From: a virus
DNA: 35,076 bases
Virus record (IMG/VR): IMGVR_UViG_3300045988_128571
Location: 1-35,076 of that record
Reading direction: 5' to 3' (one strand)
Both the position numbers and the translations under genes were made by a program. Numbering within the stretch: the stretch's first letter is position 1; every line of letters starts with the position of its first letter. Below, one piece after another: positions 1,273-23,467 of this stretch. Below the pieces are notes generated by a model. That model had not been told where the DNA came from. It searched no databases and worked only from the letters and a program-made list of their open reading frames with translations.

Positions 1273-3369
1273 CTATTTTTTAGGGTAAATTTTACCCTCT
1301 CCGAGCTCATAATTTCCGTTTGCAAGAATATCTCTTCGTACTGTTTTTTCGGAAACATCTAAATATGCTGCCATATCTTTTATCGTAACGATTTCCTTGC
1401 CGCCCATACTCAAGTTTTCATAAGCAGTATCCACCTGTGAGATGCGGTCTTCTTTCTGTCTCGCTTTCGCTTTGTTTCCTGCCTCACGGCCCTTAGCGCG
1501 TACATCTTCAAGACTGCCTTCTTCAGCTGCCATTGCCAGTACTCCGGTGTCATCCAGTCTGTGAATCGGATACGTAAACCACATATTAACAGGCTCAAAC
1601 ATCGGGAATTCGCGAAGTGTCCCTGCAATACGCCATGCCGTAGGCTTGACTGTTATCCCTGCAGCCTTGTCTGCTTCCCTGTCATAATCTGCCCGCCGGC
1701 TGTCGTTATTGACACAGAGCTGAATCATATCGAGGATTGCGTCAGGGTCGCGGGCAAATACGCCGGAGCCGGACGCACGATCCATCGACCGCTTCATTCC
1801 CTGTCCGCCCTTCGAGTGATGGTGACAGTAAATTACCGCAGCCGATAATTCCGTACAGACCTTATCAAACTGGTTACAGAACCGCGCCATTTGGTCAGCA
1901 CTGTTTTCATCGCCCGTAATAATCTTGTAAATCGGGTCGATAACAATAGCGATATAATTTTTCTTTTGCGCGCGGCGGATAAGTTTCGGTGCAAGCTGAT
2001 CCATCGGTAGTGATTTTCCGCGCAGATTCCATATATCAATATTAGAAATGTAATCGGGACGTAAATTCAGCGCGGTATAGACGTCTTTAAACCGATGCAG
2101 GCAGCTTGCCCTGTCCAATTCCAAATTGACATATAATACGCGTCCCTGCGTGCATTGAAAACCGCACCATTGCGTACCTTCTGCAATAGCGATACAAAGT
2201 TCAATCAGTGTGAAAGACTTACCTGCTTTTGACGGTCCGGAAATAAGCATTTTATGTCCCTGCCGAAGCACGCCATCAATCAATGATGGGGATAAATCGG
2301 GCATGTTATTCCACACATCAGACAGATCTTCCGGATCGGGCAGATCATCATTAACAGTCTCAATCCATTCTTTCCAGCTATCGAAATCTTCCTTCCCGAT
2401 ATGTGTGGCCATGAGAAACTGCTTTTTACCATTTCTCATGATGCCAGGCAATCGTGATAAACGGGACGGGTTTCTGTCCGCGCCATCGACCGGCAACCCG
2501 TTTTTCCGGCATACTTTGTACAGATAATCTACACGGCGTCGGTATTCTTCCTGTGACGCTGCGTCGATATGTACGATGGCATGAATGCTTTTGTTCCCGG
2601 AATACACCAATGCCGCGACCGGAAGTTCCAATTCCTCTATAATAGATTTCTGCTTCCCCGGCGGGAGCGTGTCTGATTCTACAAGAGCATATTTGTAATT
2701 GGATACATTTTCATTTTTAATACCCTTGCCGTCTAAAGGATTGAAACGGATCCATGCACCTGCTTTTTCATCGTAATCCGCAAGAGCATATCCGATGATA
2801 TCTTTTATACTGTAGCCGTTTCTCTGGTACTTTTTAATACGGGAAATATATTCTCCCGCTGTCAAAGAGTATGTACCCGTTCCGGACGGGGAATATTTTC
2901 CATCATCACGCCTGAAAGAAGACATAACAATACCGACTTTGTCGGATCTGTCAAAAAGCGCTTCCAGATATCGGATAATCTCATCGGCCGGATTCCATTG
3001 TGCCGGTTCTTTGATTTCTGATTCTTGTACATAGTGCTGATCAACGATAATGACATTGTCTGTTACCGTATCATCCCAGTCCATTACTTTGTTGCCGTCT
3101 TCTTTTGTATGCGGCTGCCATCCATAATCTTTTGCCATCTGAGTAATCGTCGCTCCTGTAACCGGATTCGGATTCCCCTTGAATGACTGCCATTTTTTAT
3201 GACATTCACCATCATGGTAACGTTCCGGGTCCTTTTGGCTCCAGTCATCCCACACATCAACGCTGTAGCCCTCATGACATAACGCCATGCCTACATCGAT
3301 CCATTCTTCATAGCTGCAGGCCGCGGGCGGTATATACTCCAGCAATGGCCGTAAATCTATCTTCGACAT
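1273..3369 (-). CDS. Replication protein: PriCT-like N-terminus, AEP-type primase/polymerase region, RepA/DnaB-like (AAA_25-type) ATPase and a C-terminal HTH
   Basis: 698 aa. The N-terminus EEWIDVGMALCHEG...WDDWSQKD...KKW is PriCT-like. LVYSGNKSIHAIVHID is an AEP-like motif. Walker A ISGPSKAGKSFTLIELCIAIAEG, then VLYVNLELD. C-terminal TIKDMAAYLDVSEKTVRRDI looks like an HTH. GGAG RBS. Confidence 0.8.
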   Translation of the reverse strand: MSKIDLRPLLEYIPPAACSYEEWIDVGMALCHEGYSVDVWDDWSQKDPERYHDGECHKKWQSFKGNPNPVTGATITQMAKDYGWQPHTKEDGNKVMDWDDTVTDNVIIVDQHYVQESEIKEPAQWNPADEIIRYLEALFDRSDKVGIVMSSFRRDDGKYSPSGTGTYSLTAGEYISRIKKYQRNGYSIKDIIGYALADYDEKAGAWIRFNPLDGKGIKNENVSNYKYALVESDTLPPGKQKSIIEELELPVAALVYSGNKSIHAIVHIDAASQEEYRRRVDYLYKVCRKNGLPVDGADRNPSRLSRLPGIMRNGKKQFLMATHIGKEDFDSWKEWIETVNDDLPDPEDLSDVWNNMPDLSPSLIDGVLRQGHKMLISGPSKAGKSFTLIELCIAIAEGTQWCGFQCTQGRVLYVNLELDRASCLHRFKDVYTALNLRPDYISNIDIWNLRGKSLPMDQLAPKLIRRAQKKNYIAIVIDPIYKIITGDENSADQMARFCNQFDKVCTELSAAVIYCHHHSKGGQGMKRSMDRASGSGVFARDPDAILDMIQLCVNNDSRRADYDREADKAAGITVKPTAWRIAGTLREFPMFEPVNMWFTYPIHRLDDTGVLAMAAEEGSLEDVRAKGREAGNKAKARQKEDRISQVDTAYENLSMGGKEIVTIKDMAAYLDVSEKTVRRDILANGNYELGEGKIYPKK

Positions 3370-3372
3370 AGG

Positions 3373-4983
3373 TTATGCTCCAAAATTCAATTCTTGATTA
3401 GGGACATATAAAGCCGGCTTGATACCGCGGGGAATTGTCCAGTGATGATTAGCAATCTGGGAAATCATGTTGTTTGCGTCGTTAAACGTCCAGATCCCCA
3501 CATGCTGAAAACCGCGGCTTTCTAAAAAGCGGATCTGTTTTGGGGTGGACAGTCCGTTTTCCCGCCGTTTATTCAGACGGTCGAGTAAAAGACTGGCCTT
3601 TCCTGCGTTGTCGATTTCGTCAGGGAATATGCCGAATTTCTCCAATGCTTTGAGCTGTTTGTCGCTTGCAGGTGCCATTTCCCAGCCGAAAGACGGGACG
3701 TAATCAGATAAATCTTCTGCTTGTATAGACATTTCAAACTGCAATGGATCTACTAACTGGCGTTTCCGTTTTTTCATCGCTGATAATTCTTTTGCAAGAG
3801 CTTCCTCCCGCTCAAGAATGGTTTCCTCCGCTGCCCGCTTGTAAGCGTCCTCTATGTCAACAGCGGCCCCGGACTGGTCCAAGTCCTTCGTCATTCTTTT
3901 TGCGATATCATCTGTCTTGCAGATAAGCGATGCCGGGCGGCATAATTCATGCCGCGCCGTATTCCACAAAAAATCTAATACCAATAAATCCTTTTTGCCC
4001 GTTTCCGGAGAAAGTCTTGTTCCCCGCCCTATACATTGGCAATATAAACTTCTGATTTTCGTTGCCCGAAGCATGATTACGCAATCCACTGACGGACAGT
4101 CCCAACCTTCCGTCAGTAACATAGCATTACAGAGTACGTTATACTCTCCTGCCTCAAATTTCTTTAGTGTTTCTTCTCTGTTCTGACTGTTTCCATTCAC
4201 CTCCGCTGCTTTCATCCCAAAATGGTTTAAAATAGCTTTAAACTTTTTAGCCGTGGCGACTAAAGGTAAGAAGACTACAGTCTTCTTACCGGCGCAATAT
4301 GTAACCATTTCTTTTGCAATTTGTTCAAGATACGGGTCAAGGGCTGTTCCTAAGGCTCCTGCCGCGTAATCTCCGGCAGACATACCAACGCCTGTGATAT
4401 CAATCTTGAGCGGTATCGTCTGCGCCTTGATTTTGCACAAATAGCCATCCTTGATAGCCTGCGTCAAAGAATATTCATAAGCTAAGCTGTCGAAATAATT
4501 TCCCAGACACTGCAGATTATTTCGTTCCGGTGTGGCGGTTACGCCTAATACATTTGCCGTCGGGAAATGCTGCAGCACTTGTTGATAACTATCGGCCAGT
4601 GCGTGATGGGCTTCATCTACAATAATGGTGCCAAATTCATCTTCCGGAAACTGCCGGAGCCGTTTTTTACGCATGAGTGTCTGCACGGACCCCACAACAA
4701 TTCTGTACCAGCTGGCAAGACTTGTTTCTTCCGCTTTTTCTTTAGCACATAAGAGACCTGTTGCGGTCTTGATTTTTTCCTGCGCCTGATTCAAAAGTTC
4801 TTCTCTATGGGCAAGAATCAAGACTTTTCTCCCCTCACGAACACAGTTTTCTGCGATTTTAGCAAAGGCAATCGTTTTGCCTGTGCCTGTGGGAAGAACC
4901 AAAAGCGTCTTCCTGTGACCGTTCGCCCATTCGCGCATAACAGCTGTAACCGCTTCCTGTTGGTAGGGTCTTAGTTCCATCAT
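3373..4983 (-). CDS. Superfamily-2 DEAD/DEAH-box helicase
   Basis: LRPYQQEA, LPTGTGKT (motif I), IIVDEAHH (motif II), GVTATP (motif III), GRGTR (motif VI). The C-terminus has a repeated SDKQLKALEKFGI / TPKQIRFLESRGF motif. Confidence 0.85.
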   Translation of the reverse strand: MMELRPYQQEAVTAVMREWANGHRKTLLVLPTGTGKTIAFAKIAENCVREGRKVLILAHREELLNQAQEKIKTATGLLCAKEKAEETSLASWYRIVVGSVQTLMRKKRLRQFPEDEFGTIIVDEAHHALADSYQQVLQHFPTANVLGVTATPERNNLQCLGNYFDSLAYEYSLTQAIKDGYLCKIKAQTIPLKIDITGVGMSAGDYAAGALGTALDPYLEQIAKEMVTYCAGKKTVVFLPLVATAKKFKAILNHFGMKAAEVNGNSQNREETLKKFEAGEYNVLCNAMLLTEGWDCPSVDCVIMLRATKIRSLYCQCIGRGTRLSPETGKKDLLVLDFLWNTARHELCRPASLICKTDDIAKRMTKDLDQSGAAVDIEDAYKRAAEETILEREEALAKELSAMKKRKRQLVDPLQFEMSIQAEDLSDYVPSFGWEMAPASDKQLKALEKFGIFPDEIDNAGKASLLLDRLNKRRENGLSTPKQIRFLESRGFQHVGIWTFNDANNMISQIANHHWTIPRGIKPALYVPNQELNFGA

Positions 4984-9691: not shown

Positions 9692-9763
9692 CACTAATTT
9701 CATAAAATTTGTTGAAATTTCGTTTTTTATATGATATCCTACTTTCAAGTAGGAGGAATAATT

Positions 9764-10375
9764 ATGACGCGAGAGCAATACTTAAGAGCAAAAATTGAAG
9801 AACAAGGCACATTAAAATGGTTTTCTGATAAGATTGATATGCCATATAGCACCCTACTTTCAATTTTAAAAAATGTAGGCGGAGCCTCTATGGATAACAT
9901 TAATAAAATTTGCCATGGCCTAAATATCTTGTCTGATGATCTTAATTATTTAGCGGAGTCCGCATCTTCACTAACAAAAGGCGTACGCATTCCCATACTG
10001 GGGAAAGTTGTTGCTGGTATCCCAGTAGAAGCTATTACCGATATTGAAGGATGGGAAGAACTTCCCACTAAGATGGCTGCCGGTGGAGAATACTTCGCCT
10101 TGCGAATCAAAGGCTCCTCTATGGAGCCAAAACTACTGGAAGGTGATATTGTCATTGTCCGTAAGCAGAATGATGTAGATAATGGCGATACGGCAATTGT
10201 ACTTGTAAATGGTGATGAAGCTACCGTAAAACAAATAAAAAAGACCGATACGGGGATTATGCTTGTCGGTCTGAATGTAGAAGTATATCAGCCACATTTC
10301 TATACCAATAAAGAAATAGAACAACTGCCGGTACAAATCATAGGTAAAGTTATTGAATCACGGCACACGTGGTAA
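9764..10375 (+). CDS. CI/LexA-like repressor: N-terminal HTH and C-terminal S24 autopeptidase
   Basis: The AGGAGG RBS at 9751-9756 supports the ATG at 9764 (MTREQYL). VVAGIP is an Ala-Gly cleavage-site-like motif. GSSMEP holds the catalytic Ser and ATVKQI the Lys. GDIVIV is also present. Confidence 0.9.
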   Translation: MTREQYLRAKIEEQGTLKWFSDKIDMPYSTLLSILKNVGGASMDNINKICHGLNILSDDLNYLAESASSLTKGVRIPILGKVVAGIPVEAITDIEGWEELPTKMAAGGEYFALRIKGSSMEPKLLEGDIVIVRKQNDVDNGDTAIVLVNGDEATVKQIKKTDTGIMLVGLNVEVYQPHFYTNKEIEQLPVQIIGKVIESRHTW

Positions 10376-11455: not shown

Positions 11456-12526
11456 ATGGAATATTCTTTTTCGACGCGTGAGAAGAACGGTAGTATCTGC
11501 CTCATTTTATCCTACAAGGTAAATAGTAAATGGAAGCAGAAAACCAAACAAGGATTTAAAACGCTGCGGGAAGCCAAACAATACCAAGATAAATTATTAG
11601 CTGCCGCAAAAGAAGATGCCGCCTGCGGAGCCGATCCGGAATTAGCGGACATTACCTTTGAAAGTTTCACACAGAATATATACTTGCGGGATAAAGAATC
11701 CTCTTTAGAATATAGCACAAAAAGGAACTATTTCTTTATGCTCCGTAGTATTCCTACCCTGTGCGATAAGCCCATACGGGAAATTACCGCCGGGGATGTG
11801 ATTAATGTCTATCAGGATATGGGACGATTCAGCGAAGGCACAAGAAAGAATCGTTTCGCCCAGATTCGTGCCATCTTTAACTATGCCATCAATCCGTATA
11901 AAATTATTACCGTCAATCCTGCAGACAGCGTCACACAGGTGAAAGATAAGACGCCCCGCCGGGTAAAAGCACTGACAGAAAAAGAATCATTGCAACTGCT
12001 TGACGCATTAAGTGATACATCCATTTTTTACATGATCGCTTTCATTGCTCTGAATACCGGCATGAGATACGGAGAAATAGCCGGATTGACATGGAACAGT
12101 ATCAATTTTGCCAGACAAACAATCACCATAGATAAACAGTATAACTGGATATCTCCCGAAAAACGGGGATTTAAAGCCGTAAAATCACGAAACGGAAACC
12201 GAACCATACATATGAATACGAAACTGGCAGCCAGATTAAATACGTGGAAACAGACCGTTCCCATATCTATTGACGGACGCGTTATCCCGACAACACCAAG
12301 TACACATGCCCTCATGAATAGGCAGCTGCGTAAATTAAAACAGGGAATTTCCGTTCATACCCTGCGACACACCTTTGCCACCATGCTTTTATCGAAATCC
12401 AAAGACATTAATCTCGTTGCAGCCGTTTTGGGGGACAATGTAGCCACTGTTGCGGCCACTTATATCCACTATACTGATGATATTCGCAAAGAAGCAGACC
12501 AATATATAGAAACCATGTACAAATGA
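11456..12526 (+). CDS. int: Tyrosine recombinase (phage integrase)
   Basis: 356 aa. TGMRYGEIAGLTW (catalytic Arg box) and HTLRHTFATMLL...AAVLGDNVATVAATYIHY (H-x-x-R ... H/Y) are typical of the phage integrase family. Confidence 0.92.
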   Translation: MEYSFSTREKNGSICLILSYKVNSKWKQKTKQGFKTLREAKQYQDKLLAAAKEDAACGADPELADITFESFTQNIYLRDKESSLEYSTKRNYFFMLRSIPTLCDKPIREITAGDVINVYQDMGRFSEGTRKNRFAQIRAIFNYAINPYKIITVNPADSVTQVKDKTPRRVKALTEKESLQLLDALSDTSIFYMIAFIALNTGMRYGEIAGLTWNSINFARQTITIDKQYNWISPEKRGFKAVKSRNGNRTIHMNTKLAARLNTWKQTVPISIDGRVIPTTPSTHALMNRQLRKLKQGISVHTLRHTFATMLLSKSKDINLVAAVLGDNVATVAATYIHYTDDIRKEADQYIETMYK

Positions 12527-15378: not shown

Positions 15379-18300
15379 TTATTTGATATCTCCTTTCCCT
15401 AATGCCTTTCTTGCAATTCTAACTTGTGACATTTGTATTTCATCCAGCCTCTTTCGTTTAGCCTCACTGGATAAATCACTTTTCATGACTGCCTTTTTTG
15501 CTTGATTAATATTCTGAAAAGCTTTCACGGCATTCTTCATCTGTTCAAATTCTCGCGGATCGAATCCGTCCATCCGCCTATGTAGTTCCCGCCCCGCATT
15601 GAATAGTTTCAGTTGCCTGTCATAGGCATCATAAACTTCCTGTACGCTTTCACTGCTTGCGTATGGCGTGGCGGTAAATCCACGAATCCCCGGCTGTTCA
15701 GAAAATCGTTTTGCCGGACGCGTTTCATCCAGTCCGACCATCTGATCAGTAAGTGTTAATCCCAATCCGGCAAGGCTGCCGCCGTATCCTCGGATAGTAT
15801 TATCTACCTTGCGGGGAGAAACACCGAACGTTTCACCTATTTTACGGCCTACCGCTGACGTGTAAGGTCCATACTGCAATTCAGGAATTGTATTCTGCTG
15901 GCTTTGCGGTACAATATCGCGCCCCATAAAGATTGAATGATTGGTCATCGCTTCAATAGCCGGCACTAATGCAGTCGGCAGGAAGGATGGAGCCATAGAA
16001 TCAAGTACAGAGCCGGCAAGGCCTTTGAATCCCACTCCCTTTTGTTTTCTTTTTTTGTCATAATCCCACTGCAACATACGTTCCGGAACGGTACCGAAAA
16101 GAATTCCCAGTTCAAAGGGTTTGGGAATTTTAATCAGAGTGTCTTTCGTCGGAATAATCCAGAAAATATCTTTCTGCCACTGCGGCAGTTCCTGATACCG
16201 GGGATCGTCCTTGTTGAGTTCCCAAAGCAATACTGACGGCAAGGTAATCCACATAGCCGTTTTTACTGTCATATCCATCGGATTCGCTTTCCATTCACGA
16301 AACATCTTATCCGTTCCCTGAATAGCCGCATTGAAAAAGGCAATCGTCTTATTCAGTGATTTTGTGTGAGAACCTATTCGTGAAAAGTCCAGCGTCACAT
16401 CACGACTTTCAAGCGCCGCTTCCTGAATACTGCCCGGATTTCGCTTTCTGCTGAACAGCCGATTTCCGATGCCCGTATACCCTTTTCGCACATTATGAAA
16501 TTCTGCCAAGCGTGTAGCCATTTCTGTGGCTTCGGATAATCCACGTAAAACTTCAATCGGATTGGTAGTAATCATCTTCTTGACGCTTGGCCGCTGCAAG
16601 AGCTCTCTCATTTGTCCGGAAAGGTAATTCCTATCCAGAGAAACAAGATTAGCCTGTGCCGCACCCGACCGCATGTATTCCCAATACGTATTGCCCTTTT
16701 GCAGATACAGCCCCAATCCTTTAAGAGTGTCTACAACGGGGATAAATCCATATTTAGAGTAGATCGTAGCGGAAATCATGTCGCGTACGGGGTTACGCAG
16801 AATAAATTCCGGCCCCAACGTCGCCCCGGCACGAAGCCATTTTGCCGGATAAGAAAGAAGCTTCGTAAACATGTTTGCACCTTCCGGATTCAACATTTTA
16901 AATGCCTGATACAATTCCGGTGTCGTGTTATAAACGACTTTCTTTCCGTTTCTCCACACACTGAAACTATGATCCGTCACCTTTGCCGCACCGGACACTT
17001 TTTCAATCAATGCTCCCATGCCATCAACATTGGCCAGTTTCACGATAGATTGTCCGACTTTATTCCGTTCGATGGCACTCATTATTGAGAAAGTATTCCG
17101 GATTATTCCTTCCAGTGGGTCTACTACATCTAAAGTGCTGCCGCGCATTTTCTTTGTGACAGCCCCCACATTAGCAAATCCTTTTCCTGTTCCATTCCTT
17201 TGTGCTTCTGCAGCTTCATAAAATTCACGGAAGAACGGTACATAATGAGGATATTTATTCTTCATGGCCATTGCAGCCTTTACCGATAACATACCGGCAT
17301 CTACAGCATTTGCAAGCAGGAAATCATTATATCTGTGGATTTCCGTAGCGGCTTTCGCGAAAACAGGATTCTTCTCATAATGCTTGATGACGTCAAAACA
17401 TTCCGATTTTGTAAATCTCGTAATCAGCGGTGTCTCATCCCTTGGCAGGAATGTGTTCCAGTGGTTCATATCAAGTTCGCGCAATGCGGTCAGATACGTA
17501 GAAAAATCTTTCAGCTGATTATCCGGGATTTTTCGGATAATCTCTTTAAAAGCAGGTATTTTATGCTTGGGCGAACCATTCTGCAGAAGTGCTTCTGCTT
17601 TACCTGCCCAACCGCGCGCAAGCCACGCCTGCTTAAATGCGTTTTCTTCTACTCTCAACTTTCTTCCTGCGCGTTTTTCCACTTCACTGATAAGTTCCTC
17701 TAACGGATGAAGCTCATCCACCAGTGTACTATACGGTTCATGATAAACTTTCCGTGCGACTTTCTTAGAATCCTTAAAGAATTTCAACGTTTTCTGCAAT
17801 AGATTTTCTTTACCGCCAAAAGAAACAGAACCTTTCATCCGTTCCCACACAGGCTGCGCATACCATTGATGGCCGACATAAGACAATTTGTCTACTGCAG
17901 CATGCAGGTCTTTATCACCTTTCAGTATTTGTTTAAATTCCTTATAAAACAGCGGGAAATCAGAGGCCGCTTTCTTTCGACTGGTAACGTAATCATGGAA
18001 AAATTCAGCAATCCCTTCCTTTCGGATGGTTTTTATACCACCTTTGTTATAGGCATTTCCGAAACGTTTATGGATAACATTAGAAAATTCTGTATCAAAA
18101 CCAGGACGGTTGCTGAATTTAAACCTTGCATCCACATAGTGGCCAAGTTCATGCATAACAGTTCGAGGATCCCCGAATGTTCTTGTTCGTATAATGTCCG
18201 TTTTAGGGTTATACCATCCGCTTGTACCTTTCTTGCCAACACGTCCTTTCTTGATGGTGGCACCGAAAATACTATTTACATCGTCAAGAATCTGCTTGCG

Positions 18301-20532
18301 TGAAATCGTCTCTCCCTGCCAAGTGGTCAAGTCATTACCGGCCGCCTCCTCAAGCGGTCTTGCCATAAATGATCGTTCATCACCCGGCAATTTTACTTTT
18401 CCTGCTTCTTCTGCTACAATAGAGTTGCCAGATGGGTGGAGCTGGGTATCCAGCGTTGAAACCCTATCACTGGAGGGTTGCAGAGGATACCCTGACTGAC
18501 GACCTCGAATATTTTCGCCGACGTAAATTAATTCGTCGGCGTTTTTTATATCCCTTGAAAGCTGGTTAATAGCATTGTTGCGATGTCTTGGCTTATCCAT
18601 AGCCGTACTTGAAGAGATAATTTTCCCTTTATCGGTTTCATCCATGCTGACCGCTATTTGATGTAACAAATTATCTTTCCCGCGCCATAGATTCACATAG
18701 AGTTTTCTTCCGTTCTTTTGCTTAAGAATAAAATCCGGATTTTGAACAGTATCTTTTATCAACCCAGTTGCAAATGCACGGCTATCAGAAATAGACATAT
18801 TTTCGCCATGTCCGGAAGTGAAAGCTTTAACTGCGTCATCTACTGCATTTTTGTTTTCTTTGTCAAAAATAACTCTTACTTTTTCTCCCATCGGATCGTC
18901 TATTCCGTCAGCAAGTTTAAGCGTTTCCTGACGTGCATATTCAAACTTCTGTTTTTCCGGTAAATCTTTGAATGCGCTATATTCCGTTTCGTCATATGTA
19001 CGGAATACTTCCTTAGGAATAGTTCCATCTTTGATACGATTGGACAATTCTTCCGGCGTAATATCTTTCACCGGATCCTTCATGAAATTTAAATTTGCTT
19101 CTTCCGGCGCGGCTTGTTTCACATCTTCCGCAAAATCATTGAGCCCGTTCTGCATGGGACGCTGCATCGGACGGACACTGCGGCCATCATAGACTTCTCT
19201 GGCCACCTGCTGGCGGTATGCGTCATTGGCCACTGCCGGATCCGGACGTTCATACTGTTCGCGGACAATATGCGCCGCTTCTTCCGGAGTGATATTCGGA
19301 TTTTTGCGGAGTGCTTCAAAAGCCGCCCGTTCTGTAGTATTCATCTCTTCGGAGATAAAATCTACCTGTGTACACCAATCTTTGGGATCCAGTCCGTGTT
19401 CCCGGGCAAATTGCTCTAAATGTGCCTTTCTATCGCCCGTCCACTGCACCAGCCCGCGGGAATTATATCCATCTTTTGAAAGCGCTTCTGTATCAAACAT
19501 GGATTCTTGCGCAATGTTTCCGGTAATCCCCGCCGCTTCGGAATCAGTAAATCCGTTCTGGCGGAGACGGTTGTAAACATCTGTTTTTATATCTCCTGTC
19601 TCGCCGTATTCGGGCGGCAGGTTTGTTTCTTTAAGTGACTGCGTGCCCATCTCTGTATCACGGGCTAAATCGTCAAAACCTGTCTCCCCGCCACGTTTAA
19701 AAGAATCAAAAAAGCGACCTTTCGCATTGGCAAGGCCGCTCTTTACCGGATCAATAACATGTTCATTAAACGGTTCCGTCACATGCTCGCGGATAGGCTC
19801 GCTGATACTTTTCGGCGTTGCTTTTTTTATGCCTTTTGCCGCTCCGTGAATGACCGCGCCCGGTAAGAACACTTTATCCCACAATTCGGTCGGATTATCC
19901 ACAAGACTCTGTGCATATGCTCCCGGATGTGTAACCGCTTCTTTAACCGGATTAATAACAGGATCTAAAAGTGCCTCTTTTGCCGTGCTAATAACAGGCG
20001 TACCGTCATCATTGGCGATGTTCTGATCATAAGTCTGCATCGTAGAATCAAGCAATGTAGGGGTTGCCAATGCTGCACCTGCCATACGGACAATGCCGGG
20101 CATACCGGGCGTAATGGCGGTGTACCCGGCAGGTTTGCCTACCAGCTCATTGTAGACATTCATTTTTGCCCGGTTGTAATTTTCGCCCTCAAAGCCTTGC
20201 GTTGGGTCTTCCATGTTGATGGATTCTCCATTGTTGTAGGCTTCTAAAGCACGCTCTCCGGCAGCCGTAATTTCATTGCCATAATTTTCTATGGCTTTGC
20301 CGGCATTAGCCGCGTAATCAGAAAGAGTATTCCATACATTGGCTTTCGTCTTCTCCCACTGCGCTTTGCGCGCTGCACGCCCTTCTTCATAAGCGTCATC
20401 GATGCTGTTCAAAAAGCCTTTGGCCTTATCAAGCAAAGACGAATCCTGCGGCGGCTGATTCTTGAATTCATCAAAATATCTTTCACCGCCAGTATTACCG
20501 CCAGCACGCTGAAATTCATCAAAATAACCCAT
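15379..20532 (-). CDS. Giant polyvalent virion or ejection protein (1717 aa) with a phage-tail-lysozyme-type domain and an HExxH metallopeptidase-like motif
   Basis: aa ~318-430 (DNA 19243-19581): NGFTDSEAAGITGNIAQESMFDTEA...GLVQWTGDRKAHLEQFA, a tail-lysozyme-type motif. aa 794-798 is HELGH (DNA 18139-18153) in the context GWYNPKTDIIRTRTFGDPRTVMHELGHYVD. A roughly 800-aa C-terminal region has unknown function. It is the last virion gene before lysis. Confidence 0.8.
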   Translation of the reverse strand: MGYFDEFQRAGGNTGGERYFDEFKNQPPQDSSLLDKAKGFLNSIDDAYEEGRAARKAQWEKTKANVWNTLSDYAANAGKAIENYGNEITAAGERALEAYNNGESINMEDPTQGFEGENYNRAKMNVYNELVGKPAGYTAITPGMPGIVRMAGAALATPTLLDSTMQTYDQNIANDDGTPVISTAKEALLDPVINPVKEAVTHPGAYAQSLVDNPTELWDKVFLPGAVIHGAAKGIKKATPKSISEPIREHVTEPFNEHVIDPVKSGLANAKGRFFDSFKRGGETGFDDLARDTEMGTQSLKETNLPPEYGETGDIKTDVYNRLRQNGFTDSEAAGITGNIAQESMFDTEALSKDGYNSRGLVQWTGDRKAHLEQFAREHGLDPKDWCTQVDFISEEMNTTERAAFEALRKNPNITPEEAAHIVREQYERPDPAVANDAYRQQVAREVYDGRSVRPMQRPMQNGLNDFAEDVKQAAPEEANLNFMKDPVKDITPEELSNRIKDGTIPKEVFRTYDETEYSAFKDLPEKQKFEYARQETLKLADGIDDPMGEKVRVIFDKENKNAVDDAVKAFTSGHGENMSISDSRAFATGLIKDTVQNPDFILKQKNGRKLYVNLWRGKDNLLHQIAVSMDETDKGKIISSSTAMDKPRHRNNAINQLSRDIKNADELIYVGENIRGRQSGYPLQPSSDRVSTLDTQLHPSGNSIVAEEAGKVKLPGDERSFMARPLEEAAGNDLTTWQGETISRKQILDDVNSIFGATIKKGRVGKKGTSGWYNPKTDIIRTRTFGDPRTVMHELGHYVDARFKFSNRPGFDTEFSNVIHKRFGNAYNKGGIKTIRKEGIAEFFHDYVTSRKKAASDFPLFYKEFKQILKGDKDLHAAVDKLSYVGHQWYAQPVWERMKGSVSFGGKENLLQKTLKFFKDSKKVARKVYHEPYSTLVDELHPLEELISEVEKRAGRKLRVEENAFKQAWLARGWAGKAEALLQNGSPKHKIPAFKEIIRKIPDNQLKDFSTYLTALRELDMNHWNTFLPRDETPLITRFTKSECFDVIKHYEKNPVFAKAATEIHRYNDFLLANAVDAGMLSVKAAMAMKNKYPHYVPFFREFYEAAEAQRNGTGKGFANVGAVTKKMRGSTLDVVDPLEGIIRNTFSIMSAIERNKVGQSIVKLANVDGMGALIEKVSGAAKVTDHSFSVWRNGKKVVYNTTPELYQAFKMLNPEGANMFTKLLSYPAKWLRAGATLGPEFILRNPVRDMISATIYSKYGFIPVVDTLKGLGLYLQKGNTYWEYMRSGAAQANLVSLDRNYLSGQMRELLQRPSVKKMITTNPIEVLRGLSEATEMATRLAEFHNVRKGYTGIGNRLFSRKRNPGSIQEAALESRDVTLDFSRIGSHTKSLNKTIAFFNAAIQGTDKMFREWKANPMDMTVKTAMWITLPSVLLWELNKDDPRYQELPQWQKDIFWIIPTKDTLIKIPKPFELGILFGTVPERMLQWDYDKKRKQKGVGFKGLAGSVLDSMAPSFLPTALVPAIEAMTNHSIFMGRDIVPQSQQNTIPELQYGPYTSAVGRKIGETFGVSPRKVDNTIRGYGGSLAGLGLTLTDQMVGLDETRPAKRFSEQPGIRGFTATPYASSESVQEVYDAYDRQLKLFNAGRELHRRMDGFDPREFEQMKNAVKAFQNINQAKKAVMKSDLSSEAKRKRLDEIQMSQVRIARKALGKGDIK

Positions 20533-20543
20533 ATTTTACCTCT

Positions 20544-21812
20544 TTACGGTACCCATGCTGCATAGAAACCGAGTCCTTCGTTTCGTAATGCCTGCTGTAC
20601 TTCTTCTTTGGACATATGCTGCCGCATTTCCATGATTTTATTACTGAGACCTTGCTCATCATTCACAAGCTGTTTCTGCCCGCCTGTTACATCTCCCGGC
20701 TGTCCGGGCTGCTGCAAGCCTAAAACCTGTTGCAGTTGTGCATAATAAGGAGATTTTGCGGGATCAAAATCATCATCATACATATGTTGCTTCTCGTACA
20801 TCTGCTGCAAGTGACTTAGCTGTGAAATAATCTGCGAATTGTACCCGCTCGTTCCGGGCCCTTGTACTTCTCTTGCTGTACCAGGAATAACCTGCCCGCT
20901 TCTGACATCAAATAATCCGCCGCCGGTATTCACATAAAAACGTCGCGGATCTTGCGGCGGTGCATAATTCCCCATCTGCTGGACAGCTCCTGTATCGCCA
21001 TTGATTCCTACAAGCTGGCCATTTGGCATTGTCTTATAAGAAATATTCGGCTTATCCAACGCGTTGATGTTATTCAGCATATTCATATCAATCTGTGGAA
21101 GCCCCAGCTGCTGAGCACGGTAATTATAAGCGGCAATCCGCGGCGCCATTGCCTTAAGTTTTTTCGGATCATAACCGCTGACTGCCGCATTCCCGTCTTT
21201 ATCCGTAGTATAGACGAGCTGATTTAGGATATCCTGCCGTGCCGGCTCAAGAACACTGTCCTGATAGGCATTAAGCTGCTTACCATATTCTTCTGCTGTA
21301 TCATTTTCAAGCATTTCCTTTGCCATGCGCGCTGCTTCCTGTTGTCCATAGCCACTCTTGATGAAGCTGACATACGCCGCCCCGGCTTTATTTCTAAGCG
21401 ACTGCTTAATTTGGCTCCTGTCAGGCGCACCCGGCTGCGTTTGTACTTGCGGCTGTCCCTGCTGCGTATTTAATTGATAATGAGGGACGGCCTGTTCCAA
21501 TGCGTCCTGCCCCGCCGTAGTTGAAGACTGCAAAGGCTGTGTGCCGGCAGTGTTGATCTTGAAATGAGGCATTGCTTTTTCAAGACCGTCCTGCGCAAAA
21601 AGACCGTTGCCCATATGCGGGGTCTGCGGCTGTGTCAATTGAGCCAAAAGGCCCGGGGACTGTTCATCTTGATAGCCCCCAAATACTCTTGTTGCATAAT
21701 CTTTAGCATTGCGGGTATCCTGTATCTTCTGCAGACGGTTTGCCGCCCACAGTCCCGCCAGATTCCCAATCTGATCCCATGGTGATTTATCCTGTACATA
21801 GATAACACTCAT
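20544..21812 (-). CDS. Q-rich putative internal virion or ejection protein (422 aa)
   Basis: Low-complexity Q/G/P-rich protein between the Hint protein and the giant protein. AAGAGG-type coupling to its neighbours. Confidence 0.55.
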   Translation of the reverse strand: MSVIYVQDKSPWDQIGNLAGLWAANRLQKIQDTRNAKDYATRVFGGYQDEQSPGLLAQLTQPQTPHMGNGLFAQDGLEKAMPHFKINTAGTQPLQSSTTAGQDALEQAVPHYQLNTQQGQPQVQTQPGAPDRSQIKQSLRNKAGAAYVSFIKSGYGQQEAARMAKEMLENDTAEEYGKQLNAYQDSVLEPARQDILNQLVYTTDKDGNAAVSGYDPKKLKAMAPRIAAYNYRAQQLGLPQIDMNMLNNINALDKPNISYKTMPNGQLVGINGDTGAVQQMGNYAPPQDPRRFYVNTGGGLFDVRSGQVIPGTAREVQGPGTSGYNSQIISQLSHLQQMYEKQHMYDDDFDPAKSPYYAQLQQVLGLQQPGQPGDVTGGQKQLVNDEQGLSNKIMEMRQHMSKEEVQQALRNEGLGFYAAWVP

Positions 21813-21814
21813 GA

Positions 21815-23467
21815 TTATTTACCCGCTTTCTTAGCAACCGTCTTTCTTCTTGTTGCCGGCTTCTTAGCTGCCGGCTTTTTCTCTGTTTCATCCGTTGTTT
21901 CTTCTGCAGATGTTTCCATTTCCTGCATAGGTTCTTCTGCAGAATCTTCTGTTTTCTGTTCTGCAGGAACAACGTCAACCGCTTCTGCAGGAATAATGTC
22001 TCCATCCGGGGCATTACCCGCTTTGTCAGCTTCTGTCAAGCCTTCCGCCAAGATACCGTTTGCATAGAACATATTGTCACCGGTCAATTCCAGTTCATAA
22101 ACCTTTTCTTTTCGACCGGTTTCTACAATTGATGTAATCGGTTCAAATCCGTTTACTGTCATGACACTCTCACCTTCGGAAAGTTCGGTTAAAGGTTTCT
22201 TTCCATCAGGCGTCATGAATACTTCCGTCTGTGTGGTTTCTACCGTGCAGGATGGCGTGCGCAGTTCATAAATATCCGCCTCGCCCATATCATGAAGTTC
22301 TGTAACCTCATTCACTGCGCCAAGAGAAACAACCTGATCACCAAATGTCATCTGTTCAATGGCAACTGCACCTTCCGGTGTTGAAATTTCTGTTCCTGCT
22401 GTAAAGCATGCAAAATAACTTCCTAATCCGCTCATAAGACCTCCAAAGAATCCGCCGCTCCCTTGACGTACAACCGTCTGTGCAGGAGAAGCTACTGAAT
22501 ACCGCTGTTGTGATAACTGAGATAATAAACCTTGCGTTGGTGCGTTCTGGCCTGTCGCCATCGCCAAGTATTTCATTGGCGTATTAATGGACGCTTCCTG
22601 CGCCGTTGCTGCCGTTTTAATCGGATCTGTCGTCATCTGTTGCGACTGATTCGCCAGCTGTGACAGCGTTGAAATACCTTGCTGTCTGTTGTTGAAATTC
22701 GTATTTGCCAAGTCAGCCTGCTGCCCGTAGCCGGAAAGCTGGTTCCTGAATATATCACCCAATAGCCCCGCCTTACCGTTAATGCCCGCCAATTGACTGT
22801 TATAAGCTTGTCCGGCAAGCCCCGCGGCTGTCTGCATATCATTTCCGTACTGTGCAGCCAGCGTATTAGATGCATTTCGGGAAATATCATTGAATGCGCT
22901 GTCCGCTTGTGAAGAATTGATAATTCCCCGGCTGGCCAGTCCGGACAATGTACTCCCGACTGTATTCGTTAAATCAGCTTGTAATGCCTTTTGTCGATTC
23001 TCCGCATAAGAAGATGGCAGCACACCGTTTAACAATCCTTGCATAGCAGTATTATTATTCTGCATGGCCGTATTGTATTCGGACGCCAGTTCTTTATTCC
23101 CCTGTGTCATAGACTGAATAGCATTCCCCAGCAGCCCAGAGAAACGGTTGTTAGCCGCTGCATTAGCGTCTGTATTTGCATTTACCTGCGGAATCAGTCC
23201 CTGTACCAGCTGATTATTGGCTGCCGTCTGATTCTGCGCCCGGTCATACAATGTCTGCCAGTTGGGATTCGGCGTAACTTGCTGGCTGCTTAATGCTTGA
23301 TTAGCCATATTCAGCAGGTTTTGTGCCACCGGCTGTGTAGTCTGTGCCCATTTCAGCTGTTCGCCAAGCAGCCCTTTTTCCTCATCGGACATCTGTGGCA
23401 CTTGCGCCGGTGTTGTCGTTATCTTTGTCCCCTTTTTCCCGAACAGCTGTAAATCAAATAATAGCAT
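21815..23467 (-). CDS. Q/N-rich virion protein (550 aa) with an L27-like N-terminal Prp-cleavage motif, an internal Hint (bacterial intein-like) domain and an acidic-then-basic C-terminal tail
   Basis: N-terminus MLLFDLQLFGKKG. Hint domain at aa 354-476 (DNA 22040-22408): CFTAGTEISTPEGAVAIEQMTFGDQVV...VYELELTGDNMFYANGILAEG. Tail: ...EEPMQEMETSAEETTDETEKKPAAKKPATRRKTVAKKAGK. AAAGGAG RBS. Confidence 0.8.
   Translation of the reverse strand: MLLFDLQLFGKKGTKITTTPAQVPQMSDEEKGLLGEQLKWAQTTQPVAQNLLNMANQALSSQQVTPNPNWQTLYDRAQNQTAANNQLVQGLIPQVNANTDANAAANNRFSGLLGNAIQSMTQGNKELASEYNTAMQNNNTAMQGLLNGVLPSSYAENRQKALQADLTNTVGSTLSGLASRGIINSSQADSAFNDISRNASNTLAAQYGNDMQTAAGLAGQAYNSQLAGINGKAGLLGDIFRNQLSGYGQQADLANTNFNNRQQGISTLSQLANQSQQMTTDPIKTAATAQEASINTPMKYLAMATGQNAPTQGLLSQLSQQRYSVASPAQTVVRQGSGGFFGGLMSGLGSYFACFTAGTEISTPEGAVAIEQMTFGDQVVSLGAVNEVTELHDMGEADIYELRTPSCTVETTQTEVFMTPDGKKPLTELSEGESVMTVNGFEPITSIVETGRKEKVYELELTGDNMFYANGILAEGLTEADKAGNAPDGDIIPAEAVDVVPAEQKTEDSAEEPMQEMETSAEETTDETEKKPAAKKPATRRKTVAKKAGK

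Follow-up and report, generated by a model that had tools for sequence, protein, structure and literature searches.

A histidine-less Hint domain at the C-terminus of a putative DNA-ejection protein in phages of Negativicutes

Layout of the gene and its Hint domain

The 35,076-nucleotide stretch of viral DNA analyzed here (IMG/VR virus record IMGVR_UViG_3300045988_128571, positions 1 to 35,076; hereafter the window) looks like a nearly complete temperate phage genome of ~34 kb, and among the entries of its open reading frame (ORF) list is a gene of 550 codons plus stop (21815..23467, minus strand, as are all the parts of the gene given below) that encodes a putative first DNA-ejection protein with a C-terminal Hint domain, here called the Hint protein. 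It opens with a nine-residue L27-type extension, MLLFDLQLF (23441..23467), with a predicted Prp site after Phe9 and before GKKG; residues 10-335 (22463..23440) form the core that the family conserves, a domain that is Gln/Asn-rich by composition and all-helical in an AlphaFold2 (AF2) model; and residues 336-353, GSGGFFGGLMSGLGSYFA by translation (22409..22462), are a glycine-zipper linker, with the predicted scissile bond between Ala353 and Cys354 at its end. The Hint domain itself, a histidine-less variant recognized by Pfam, PDB sequence search, AF2 and Foldseek, spans residues 354-476 (22040..22408). Within it lie the codon of Cys354, the Hint position 1 nucleophile (22406..22408; translation and family alignment), block B, T412-Q-T-E415 (22223..22234; alignment to solved inteins), and blocks F and G, E458...N465...E475-G476 (22040..22096; gap-free alignment to Ssp DnaB). 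The tail after the Hint (21818-22039 by translation) is composed of residues 477-529, a short conserved LTEADK helix and then a disordered acidic stretch (21881..22039; AF2 and charge count), and residues 530-550, KKPAAKKPATRRKTVAKKAGK (21818..21880; charge count and translation), a basic tip that is H1-like in composition. By composition count the net charge is -17 for the Hint, -16 for residues 477-529 and +10 for residues 530-550. A sequence-only reading of this DNA had quoted several strings from the protein, set a Cys at the start of the domain and described a Q/N-rich region, a Gly-rich linker, an acidic patch and a basic tail; translation reproduces every string and the Cys, and the composition counts agree with the rest.

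The sequence-only reading was right in taking residues 354-476 for a Hint domain, as profile searches and structure prediction alike establish. Pfam Hint_2 (PF13403) matches the ORF with E=4.3e-10 and 40.6 bits, above the gathering score of 28.4, in a partial alignment of residues 354-382 only (profile positions 2-30 of 147), and in a phmmer search of PDB sequences residues 358-474 matched the gp41-1 intein (E=8e-5), with DnaE and DnaB inteins found as well. The AF2 model, built from a shallow input alignment of 13 sequences, gives residues 351-480 a predicted local distance difference test score (pLDDT) of 80-94; elsewhere it shows low-confidence long helices in the N-terminal part, a helix at 479-483 and disorder over residues 482-550 (pLDDT <40). 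Foldseek against the PDB paired the model with the gp41-1 intein (6riz; template-modelling (TM) score 0.91, root-mean-square deviation 1.2 A), with the Ssp DnaB mini-intein at E=2e-11 and bacterial intein-like (BIL) domains at E=3e-11 to 3e-10 (Tetrahymena BIL2 and the C. thermocellum BIL); there were 54 PDB matches at E<=1e-3, and among the 50 listed all are inteins or BILs. The Hedgehog-type Hint family (PF01079) scored 14 bits, below its cut-off of 29.7, PT-HINT (PF07591) gave no match to the ORF at E<=1, an NCBIfam search of the ORF returned nothing, and a PHROGs search matched only a family of unknown function. With residues 340-490 as query, HMMER, run exhaustively on 1.84 billion representative proteins, yielded 696 matches at E<=1e-3, and a further large search, for which short relatives supplied the profile, returned mostly near-identical Dialister-phage proteins and ~8 usable diverse sequences. 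Some full-length relatives carry the database label "Hint [Caudoviricetes sp.]", so the presence of the domain has already been annotated automatically.

Active site, family and Hint-less orthologues

When aligned with solved inteins, block B reads TQTE (412-415) against SEEH, TKDH and TANH of the gp41-1, DnaE and DnaB inteins, respectively, and the end of the domain, VYELELTGDNMFYANGILAEG followed by Leu, pairs without gaps with VFDLTVPGPHNFVANDIIVHN followed by Ser of Ssp DnaB. Two catalytic positions are kept, Cys1 (Cys354) and the block B Thr at B:7 (Thr412). The histidines at B:10, F:13 and G:6 are replaced by Glu415, Asn465 and Glu475, the Asp at F:4 by Glu458, the Asn at G:7 by Gly476 and the +1 nucleophile by Leu477; a block-G-like strand, FYANGILAEG, is present without its catalytic residues. 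Of the hallmarks of the Hint superfamily, the protein has the beta-fold and the position 1 nucleophile, and in the block B TxxH motif the Thr is kept and the His is absent. The sequence-only reading had Ala-Glu-Gly standing in for His-Asn and the +1 residue, which is off by one, as the block G alignment gives Glu475-Gly476-Leu477. Its expectation that the domain does not splice stands, there being no terminal Asn and no +1 nucleophile; indeed, because Gly476 cannot cyclise and no +1 nucleophile follows, these residues exclude both splicing and C-terminal cleavage, and Hint chemistry at the N-terminal junction appears possible. The block B His has been described as the most conserved residue of inteins, many of which cannot do without it in the acyl shift, and a small natural intein group and some engineered mutants function without it (PMC6333167).

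The relatives that share this active site, which we call type A, form ~50 clusters at 50% identity and are prophage proteins of Negativicutes, 350-550 amino acids long, with a common layout: a helical N-terminal domain, a Gly-rich hydrophobic linker directly before "CF", and one Hint. When 35 type-A proteins at 21-57% identity are aligned, no more than five columns stay invariant (Gly148, Gly181, Cys354, Phe355 and Thr412), and Cys1 is found in 53 of 53 aligned type-A Hint domains. Position B:10 is Gln in 68% and Glu in 32% and is never His, and the block B consensus is T-x-[TS]-[QE], as opposed to T-x-E-H in canonical relatives. The family further has Asn at F:13, Asp or Glu at F:4, Glu, Arg, Lys or Asp at G:6 and Gly at G:7 (81%), and the residue at -1 is usually small (Ala in 43%). 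Since most members end 2-6 residues past the Hint (e.g., ...ANGFAVEGGF), only the N-terminal junction can matter. Hint_2 matches 32 of the 35 relatives and PT-HINT matches 7. Across 35 close loci, the ratio of non-synonymous to synonymous substitution rates (dN/dS) rises from 0.057 in the N-terminal domain through 0.12 in the Hint to 0.52 in the tail, and the Cys354 codon varies synonymously between TGC and TGT with no change of amino acid. Short "Hint-only" database proteins such as P0121 and P0124 were considered as products of gene fission and were judged to be truncated gene calls from internal Met residues.

A second group of relatives, type B, consists of cellular proteins with 2-7 tandem canonical Hints (C...TAEHPF...VHNKGG, then CF); in P0123, P0131, P0134, P0137, P0139, P0142 and others, which have 3-7 such Hints, each ...VHNKGG runs straight into the next CF..., and two type-B proteins that were scanned contain Tim44-like domains too. 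Self-cleaving Hints arranged in tandem like this would cut the chain into pieces the size of a Hint. The histidine-less Hint (C...TT[TS]Q...AEG[FL]) was also seen at the end of small proteins of 176-297 amino acids (P0211, P0247, P0222, P0268, P0184 and P0210), two of which have an N-terminal Nif11 domain and nothing after the Hint. Nif11 is a fold known from the leaders of peptide precursors.

Four of the genome matches are orthologues of the N-terminal domain that have no Hint and no Pfam match. The Selenomonadaceae orthologue (L093, 274 amino acids, 1135-1959 of its locus, plus strand) aligns to residues 4-348 and ends at its stop codon in SGGGGLLSGLMGGLL (...GLLSGLMGGLL); that of Phascolarctobacterium (L094, 251 amino acids, 2761-3516, plus strand) ends in GLAGNSGFWNFL; and two from Synergistaceae (L098, 2065-3624, and L099, 2335-3810, both plus strand) end in ...TIVSQGK, which corresponds to VVRQGS336 of the ORF. 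In L093 and L094 the next gene starts immediately and a small upstream gene occupies the position of g133, the gene that precedes the Hint protein in related contigs. At 251-274 amino acids these two come close to the 196-240 reported for gp14-like proteins (PMC8954989). All four stop in, at the end of, or just before the Gly-rich linker, that is, at or next to the predicted cut site, and their existence makes the Hint an optional module of the protein family.

The segments that flank the Hint differ in how widely they are shared. Residues 10-335 are 25% Gln plus Asn by composition, and their helical domain conserves, besides the invariant Gly148 and Gly181, an RG(I/V)(I/V)NSS motif. Units of 36 amino acids were noticed at residues 103-225 (~22790-23160, minus strand), with a copy number that varies between strains; in P0062, P0119, L016 and L028 two such units are tandemly duplicated to give proteins of 620-623 amino acids, and the helical part differs in length between phages that are otherwise 81-94% identical. 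The linker (residues 336-353) is 39% Gly, has no charged residues, contains the hydropathy maximum of the protein and spells a glycine zipper, G339xxxG343xxxG347; a comparable Gly-rich segment is present in all relatives aligned. An internal lipoprotein lipobox at ...YFA-C was ruled out, the site being 350 residues from the N-terminus. At the other end of the protein, MLLFDLQLF'GKKG is the single motif in the window that fits the L27 cleavage motif, but it has Gly rather than Ala at +1. The L27-type motif cut by Prp is MLxx(D/N)LQ(F/L)F'A(S/H)KK, and the long form of L27 is reported for Firmicutes generally (PMC9405229). FDLQLFGG-type N-termini recur among the relatives, and we infer that host Prp would cut after Phe9; with such a site, the ejection protein would probably be trimmed at both ends.

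The tail is the least general of these segments. It suffers insertions and deletions among close strains, and its acidic-then-basic character is confined to the Dialister/Veillonella branch, where K/R-rich tips comparable to residues 530-550 occur in Dialister and Veillonella prophage relatives; as it is absent from most of the family, whose members end just past the Hint, it is not a family feature. Of the "DNA-binding-like fragment" that had been proposed, the basic tail is real, but the generality is not, the tail being limited to this branch, disordered and evolving at the dN/dS of 0.52 given above. In one Veillonellaceae relative (P0122 / L084, 57% identical) residues 496-530 hold a HeH/Rho_N-like (SAP-type) helix-hairpin motif, below Pfam thresholds, in place of the basic tip, and this motif hints that the tail of the branch may be a nucleic-acid-binding appendage.

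Genome context and hosts

The window carries an integrase (11456-12526, plus strand) and a CI-like repressor (9731-10375, plus strand), and it has replication genes followed by a structural module: TerS, TerL, a P22-like portal (E=7e-113), a scaffold-like protein, the major capsid protein, two small proteins, a 474-amino-acid protein, a fibre-like protein, two more small proteins, the Hint protein, proteins of 422 and 1717 amino acids, and then the lysis genes. No tape measure or tail tube is present among the annotated window genes. The 422-amino-acid product of the next gene (20544..21812, minus strand), a conserved neighbour with no family match, is a putative second ejection protein in the gp20/gp15 position, and the 1717-amino-acid polyvalent protein (15379..20532, minus strand), also a conserved neighbour, is a putative third in the gp16 position, with Pfam matches to LPD38 (E=5.8e-47, residues 1443-1615) and Phage_lysozyme2 (E=2e-30, residues 317-449). 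A weak PBECR2 nuclease-like match lies at its residues 563-658.

The order g133, Hint protein, g422 and LPD38 giant is kept in viral contigs in which identity of the Hint protein falls to 42-46%, and also in two distantly related metagenomic phages whose capsid and adaptor genes (in one, the portal too) are of SU10 type. Homologues of T7 gp14/15/16 and P22 gp7/20/16 are recognized mostly by size and synteny, and T7 gp16 carries a peptidoglycan hydrolase domain (PMC8954989). In 5 of the 35 relatives the N-terminal part, outside the Hint, is matched by the profile phrog_4287, "DNA ejection protein" (best E=2.2e-8). The position of the gene is that of P22 gp7 / T7 gp14, the first of three genes after the tail genes, and the product is likely a DNA-ejection protein by this position; the place in an ejection module that the sequence-only reading had assigned it is upheld by the podovirus-type module, the P22-like portal and the missing tape measure.

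A genome-collection scan with an 8-sequence profile found prophage copies in Dialister, Veillonella, Megasphaera, Selenomonadaceae and Phascolarctobacterium, and distant ones in Synergistaceae. These host bacteria have an outer membrane, which fits the need for a trans-envelope ejection apparatus. The Hint protein is 100% identical to that of the IMG/VR contig UViG_3300045988_112581 (L033), and hundreds of copies that are 93-98% identical occur in metagenomes, some of them on contigs of 0.2-0.6 Mb, a size that points to integrated prophages. Human mouth and gut samples commonly contain these phages, which infect Dialister and Veillonella there. Neither the protein nor 21 kb of the window gave a BLAST match to 50,697 cultured or deposited phage genomes, and three diverse relatives used as tblastn queries on the cultured-phage collection matched only inteins of helicase and portal genes and two unrelated hypothetical proteins, with no homologue; a Ruminococcus phage tblastn match was dropped for its different gene context.

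Proposed processing of the protein and known systems

The ejection proteins of short-tailed phages are soluble in the producing cell and in the capsid, and within seconds of infection they become membrane channels; to our knowledge, the control of this switch is poorly understood. The reading toward which we lean, with modest confidence, is that a temperate podovirus-like phage of Negativicutes makes three ejection (internal virion) proteins, the first of them from the Hint protein as precursor, and that this precursor would be trimmed by Hedgehog-like N-terminal self-cleavage between Ala353 and Cys354, its layout placing a self-processing Hint after the N-terminal domain that does the work. 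One could envision host Prp protease first removing MLLFDLQLF, after which the Hint would fold and Cys354 would attack the carbonyl of Ala353 in an N-S acyl shift, aided by Thr412 and by Glu415 and Glu458 standing in for the usual His and Asp. Resolution of the thioester, most simply by water, would free a ~36 kDa fragment (residues 10-353) that ends in ...GLGSYFA, with the hydrophobic glycine-zipper segment as its new C-terminus, and this fragment would be the functional gp14/gp7-like, membrane-active ejection protein. Until the cut, the Hint may mask the glycine-zipper segment and keep it soluble during synthesis and packaging. The remaining Hint-plus-tail piece, 197 residues starting with CFTAGTEISTPEGAVAIEQMTFGDQ and with a net charge of about -23 that includes the +10 tip, would stay whole because no C-terminal cut is possible at Gly476; in the Dialister/Veillonella branch the basic tip may tether it to DNA or to the capsid interior.

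The N-terminal autocleavage put forward by the sequence-only reading is not simply predicted, because the block B His is missing, and the loss of the histidines had escaped that reading; it is nonetheless supported by the invariant Cys1, Phe2 and Thr, by the terminal placement of the Hint and by the Hint-less orthologues that end at the cut site. The invariance of Cys354, Phe355 and Thr412, taken with a Hint dN/dS of 0.12, argues for a working nucleophile rather than a relic, and the Nif11 proteins that end in the same Hint, together with the orthologues that stop at the junction, favor processing at the N-terminal junction. Several observations weigh on the other side. The histidines of block B, F:13 and G:6 are all missing; the alternation of Gln and Glu at B:10 disfavors a specific acid/base role for that residue; and because the -1 residue is usually small, the steric compensation known from His-less mutants is not evident. 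Judging from the orthologues, the Hint is dispensable for the core function, which fits a removable module without proving removal, and the assignment as an ejection protein rests on synteny, the ORF itself having no phrog_4287 match.

These same replacements, of three catalytic histidines and the terminal Asn, are what the main rival builds on, namely that the Hint is catalytically dead and the protein uncut, the domain being retained as a structural or docking module such as an acidic knob on the portal or capsid or a plug of the channel. The variation at B:10 (Gln/Glu) and at G:6 (Glu/Arg/Lys/Asp) agrees with this, a net charge of -17 could suit an interaction role, and the Hint-less orthologues show that the core works without the domain. 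However, a dead domain has no obvious need for an invariant Cys1, Phe2 and block B Thr at 21-57% identity, its boundary coincides with the place where the Hint-less orthologues stop, and the same variant is terminal in the unrelated Nif11 proteins, so we regard this alternative as doubtful, if still a serious one.

If the thioester does form at Ala353, it could instead be passed to a specific acceptor, such as a membrane lipid head group, a peptidoglycan or other cell-wall amine, or a lysine or the N-terminus of another virion protein. The Hedgehog-like order of an N-terminal domain and then a terminal Hint would suit such a transfer, as would the hydrophobic glycine zipper right at the C-terminus that would be modified and an unusual active site that might be tuned to a particular acceptor, and the thioester of type A BILs is reportedly resolved by attack of a free amino group (PMC4031507). 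Yet there is no extension resembling a sterol-recognition region, as most relatives end 2-6 residues past the Hint, and the Hint-less orthologues manage with a plain C-terminus, all of which leaves transfer improbable. Were it to take place, it would amount to a ligase-like device that covalently anchors or polymerises the DNA-delivery channel, a viral counterpart of Hedgehog cholesteroylation, and the Nif11-Hint proteins might use the same chemistry.

We give very little credence to the proposal that the Hint is a releasing peptidase, in the style of polymorphic toxins, that frees the acidic/basic tail as an effector or DNA-binding peptide: the required cyclising Asn, Gln or Asp at G:7 is Gly here and in ~80% of the family, the tail, which most relatives lack, is disordered and fast-evolving, and the ORF has no PT-HINT match, even though a Hint peptidase just before a C-terminal payload is a known theme (PMC3482391), PT-HINT does match 7 of the 35 relatives, and the basic tip is H1-like, with a HeH/Rho_N-like motif there in one relative. 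That the domain is a decaying intein, a selfish element stripped of its splicing residues, is hardly credible, for although mini-inteins of phage and cyanobacterial genes come nearest to it among solved structures, most relatives have no C-extein, the Hint is always at the same C-terminal place, it is conserved over ~50 clusters under purifying selection without a homing endonuclease, and no intein-free allele was seen in which conserved sequence runs across the insertion point.

Under the favored reading of N-terminal self-cleavage, a single-use domain that uncovers a hydrophobic end by cutting itself off would be a new answer to the problem of the soluble-to-channel switch and the first Hedgehog-style use of a Hint in a virus particle. 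With Cys1 and the block B Thr kept and Gln/Glu, Asn and Glu in place of three histidines, this large natural family would also offer a test of what those histidines do, and a histidine-less Hint could yield a cleavage-only tag for protein engineering. In the literature searched we found no paper that combines Hint domains with phage ejection proteins, in line with the earlier statement that such processing is not a standard feature of them.

As to known systems, class 1 mini-inteins (gp41-1, Ssp and Npu DnaB, Npu DnaE) are the best structural matches and share Cys1, the block B Thr and an acidic F:4, but the Hint protein has no His at B:10, F:13 or G:6, no Asn at G:7, no +1 nucleophile and no extein, and its Hint is not inserted in a conserved host protein, so that the C-terminal His-Asn, the +1 Cys, Ser or Thr and the rejoined conserved host halves of that class are all absent. 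The Tko CDC21-1 group and the engineered H73A DnaB inteins resemble it in that the N-S acyl shift is achieved without the His, through compensating residues or strain (PMC6333167). Unlike the Hint protein, these are splicing inteins with a bulky -1 residue or a compensating Lys, where the ORF has Ala at -1 and the family has Gln or Glu at B:10.

BIL domains (PF13403; PDB 2lwy and 6y75) are likewise non-mobile Hints in bacterial and phage proteins without a +1 nucleophile, and their types A and B are reportedly those described by Amitai in 2003 and Dassa in 2004. They cleave rather than splice, with cleavage in type B uncoupled from splicing (PMC4031507). Type A, which also has no +1 nucleophile, keeps a C-terminal His-Asn where the ORF has Glu-Gly, and type B is said to lack block G similarity, whereas the ORF keeps its block-G-like strand; in contrast to BILs, moreover, the ORF has no block B His and its Hint is terminal on a putative phage ejection protein. 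PT-HINT (PF07591) is comparable as the built-in releasing peptidase of a delivered protein (PMC3482391), and some relatives score above its cut-off, but there a toxin domain follows, where in this family nothing or a short disordered tail follows. The outer-membrane pore formers T7 gp14 and P22 gp7 are, like the Hint protein as modelled and by synteny, helical products of the first of three genes, followed by a ~420-amino-acid protein and a giant peptidoglycan-hydrolase protein; in the literature searched, none is known to carry a Hint domain. With the Prp substrates (phage 80alpha capsid and scaffold proteins, and L27) it shares the N-terminal cleavage motif, and it differs from them in the Gly at +1 and in that the substrate would be a putative ejection protein.

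It is the Hedgehog C-terminal domain HhC (PF01079) that the Hint protein, in its layout, appears to work most like, being neither an intein nor a type A BIL. Both have the Hint fold and Cys1, a functional N-terminal domain followed by a terminal or near-terminal Hint, and a layout in which the N-terminal junction alone could react, and in both the new C-terminus of the released fragment would be its membrane-facing part. In the ORF a disordered tail of 74 residues comes after the Hint. The Hint protein departs from HhC in having Glu for the TxxH His and no sterol-recognition region, in falling short of the PF01079 threshold, and in belonging to a bacterial virus rather than an animal.

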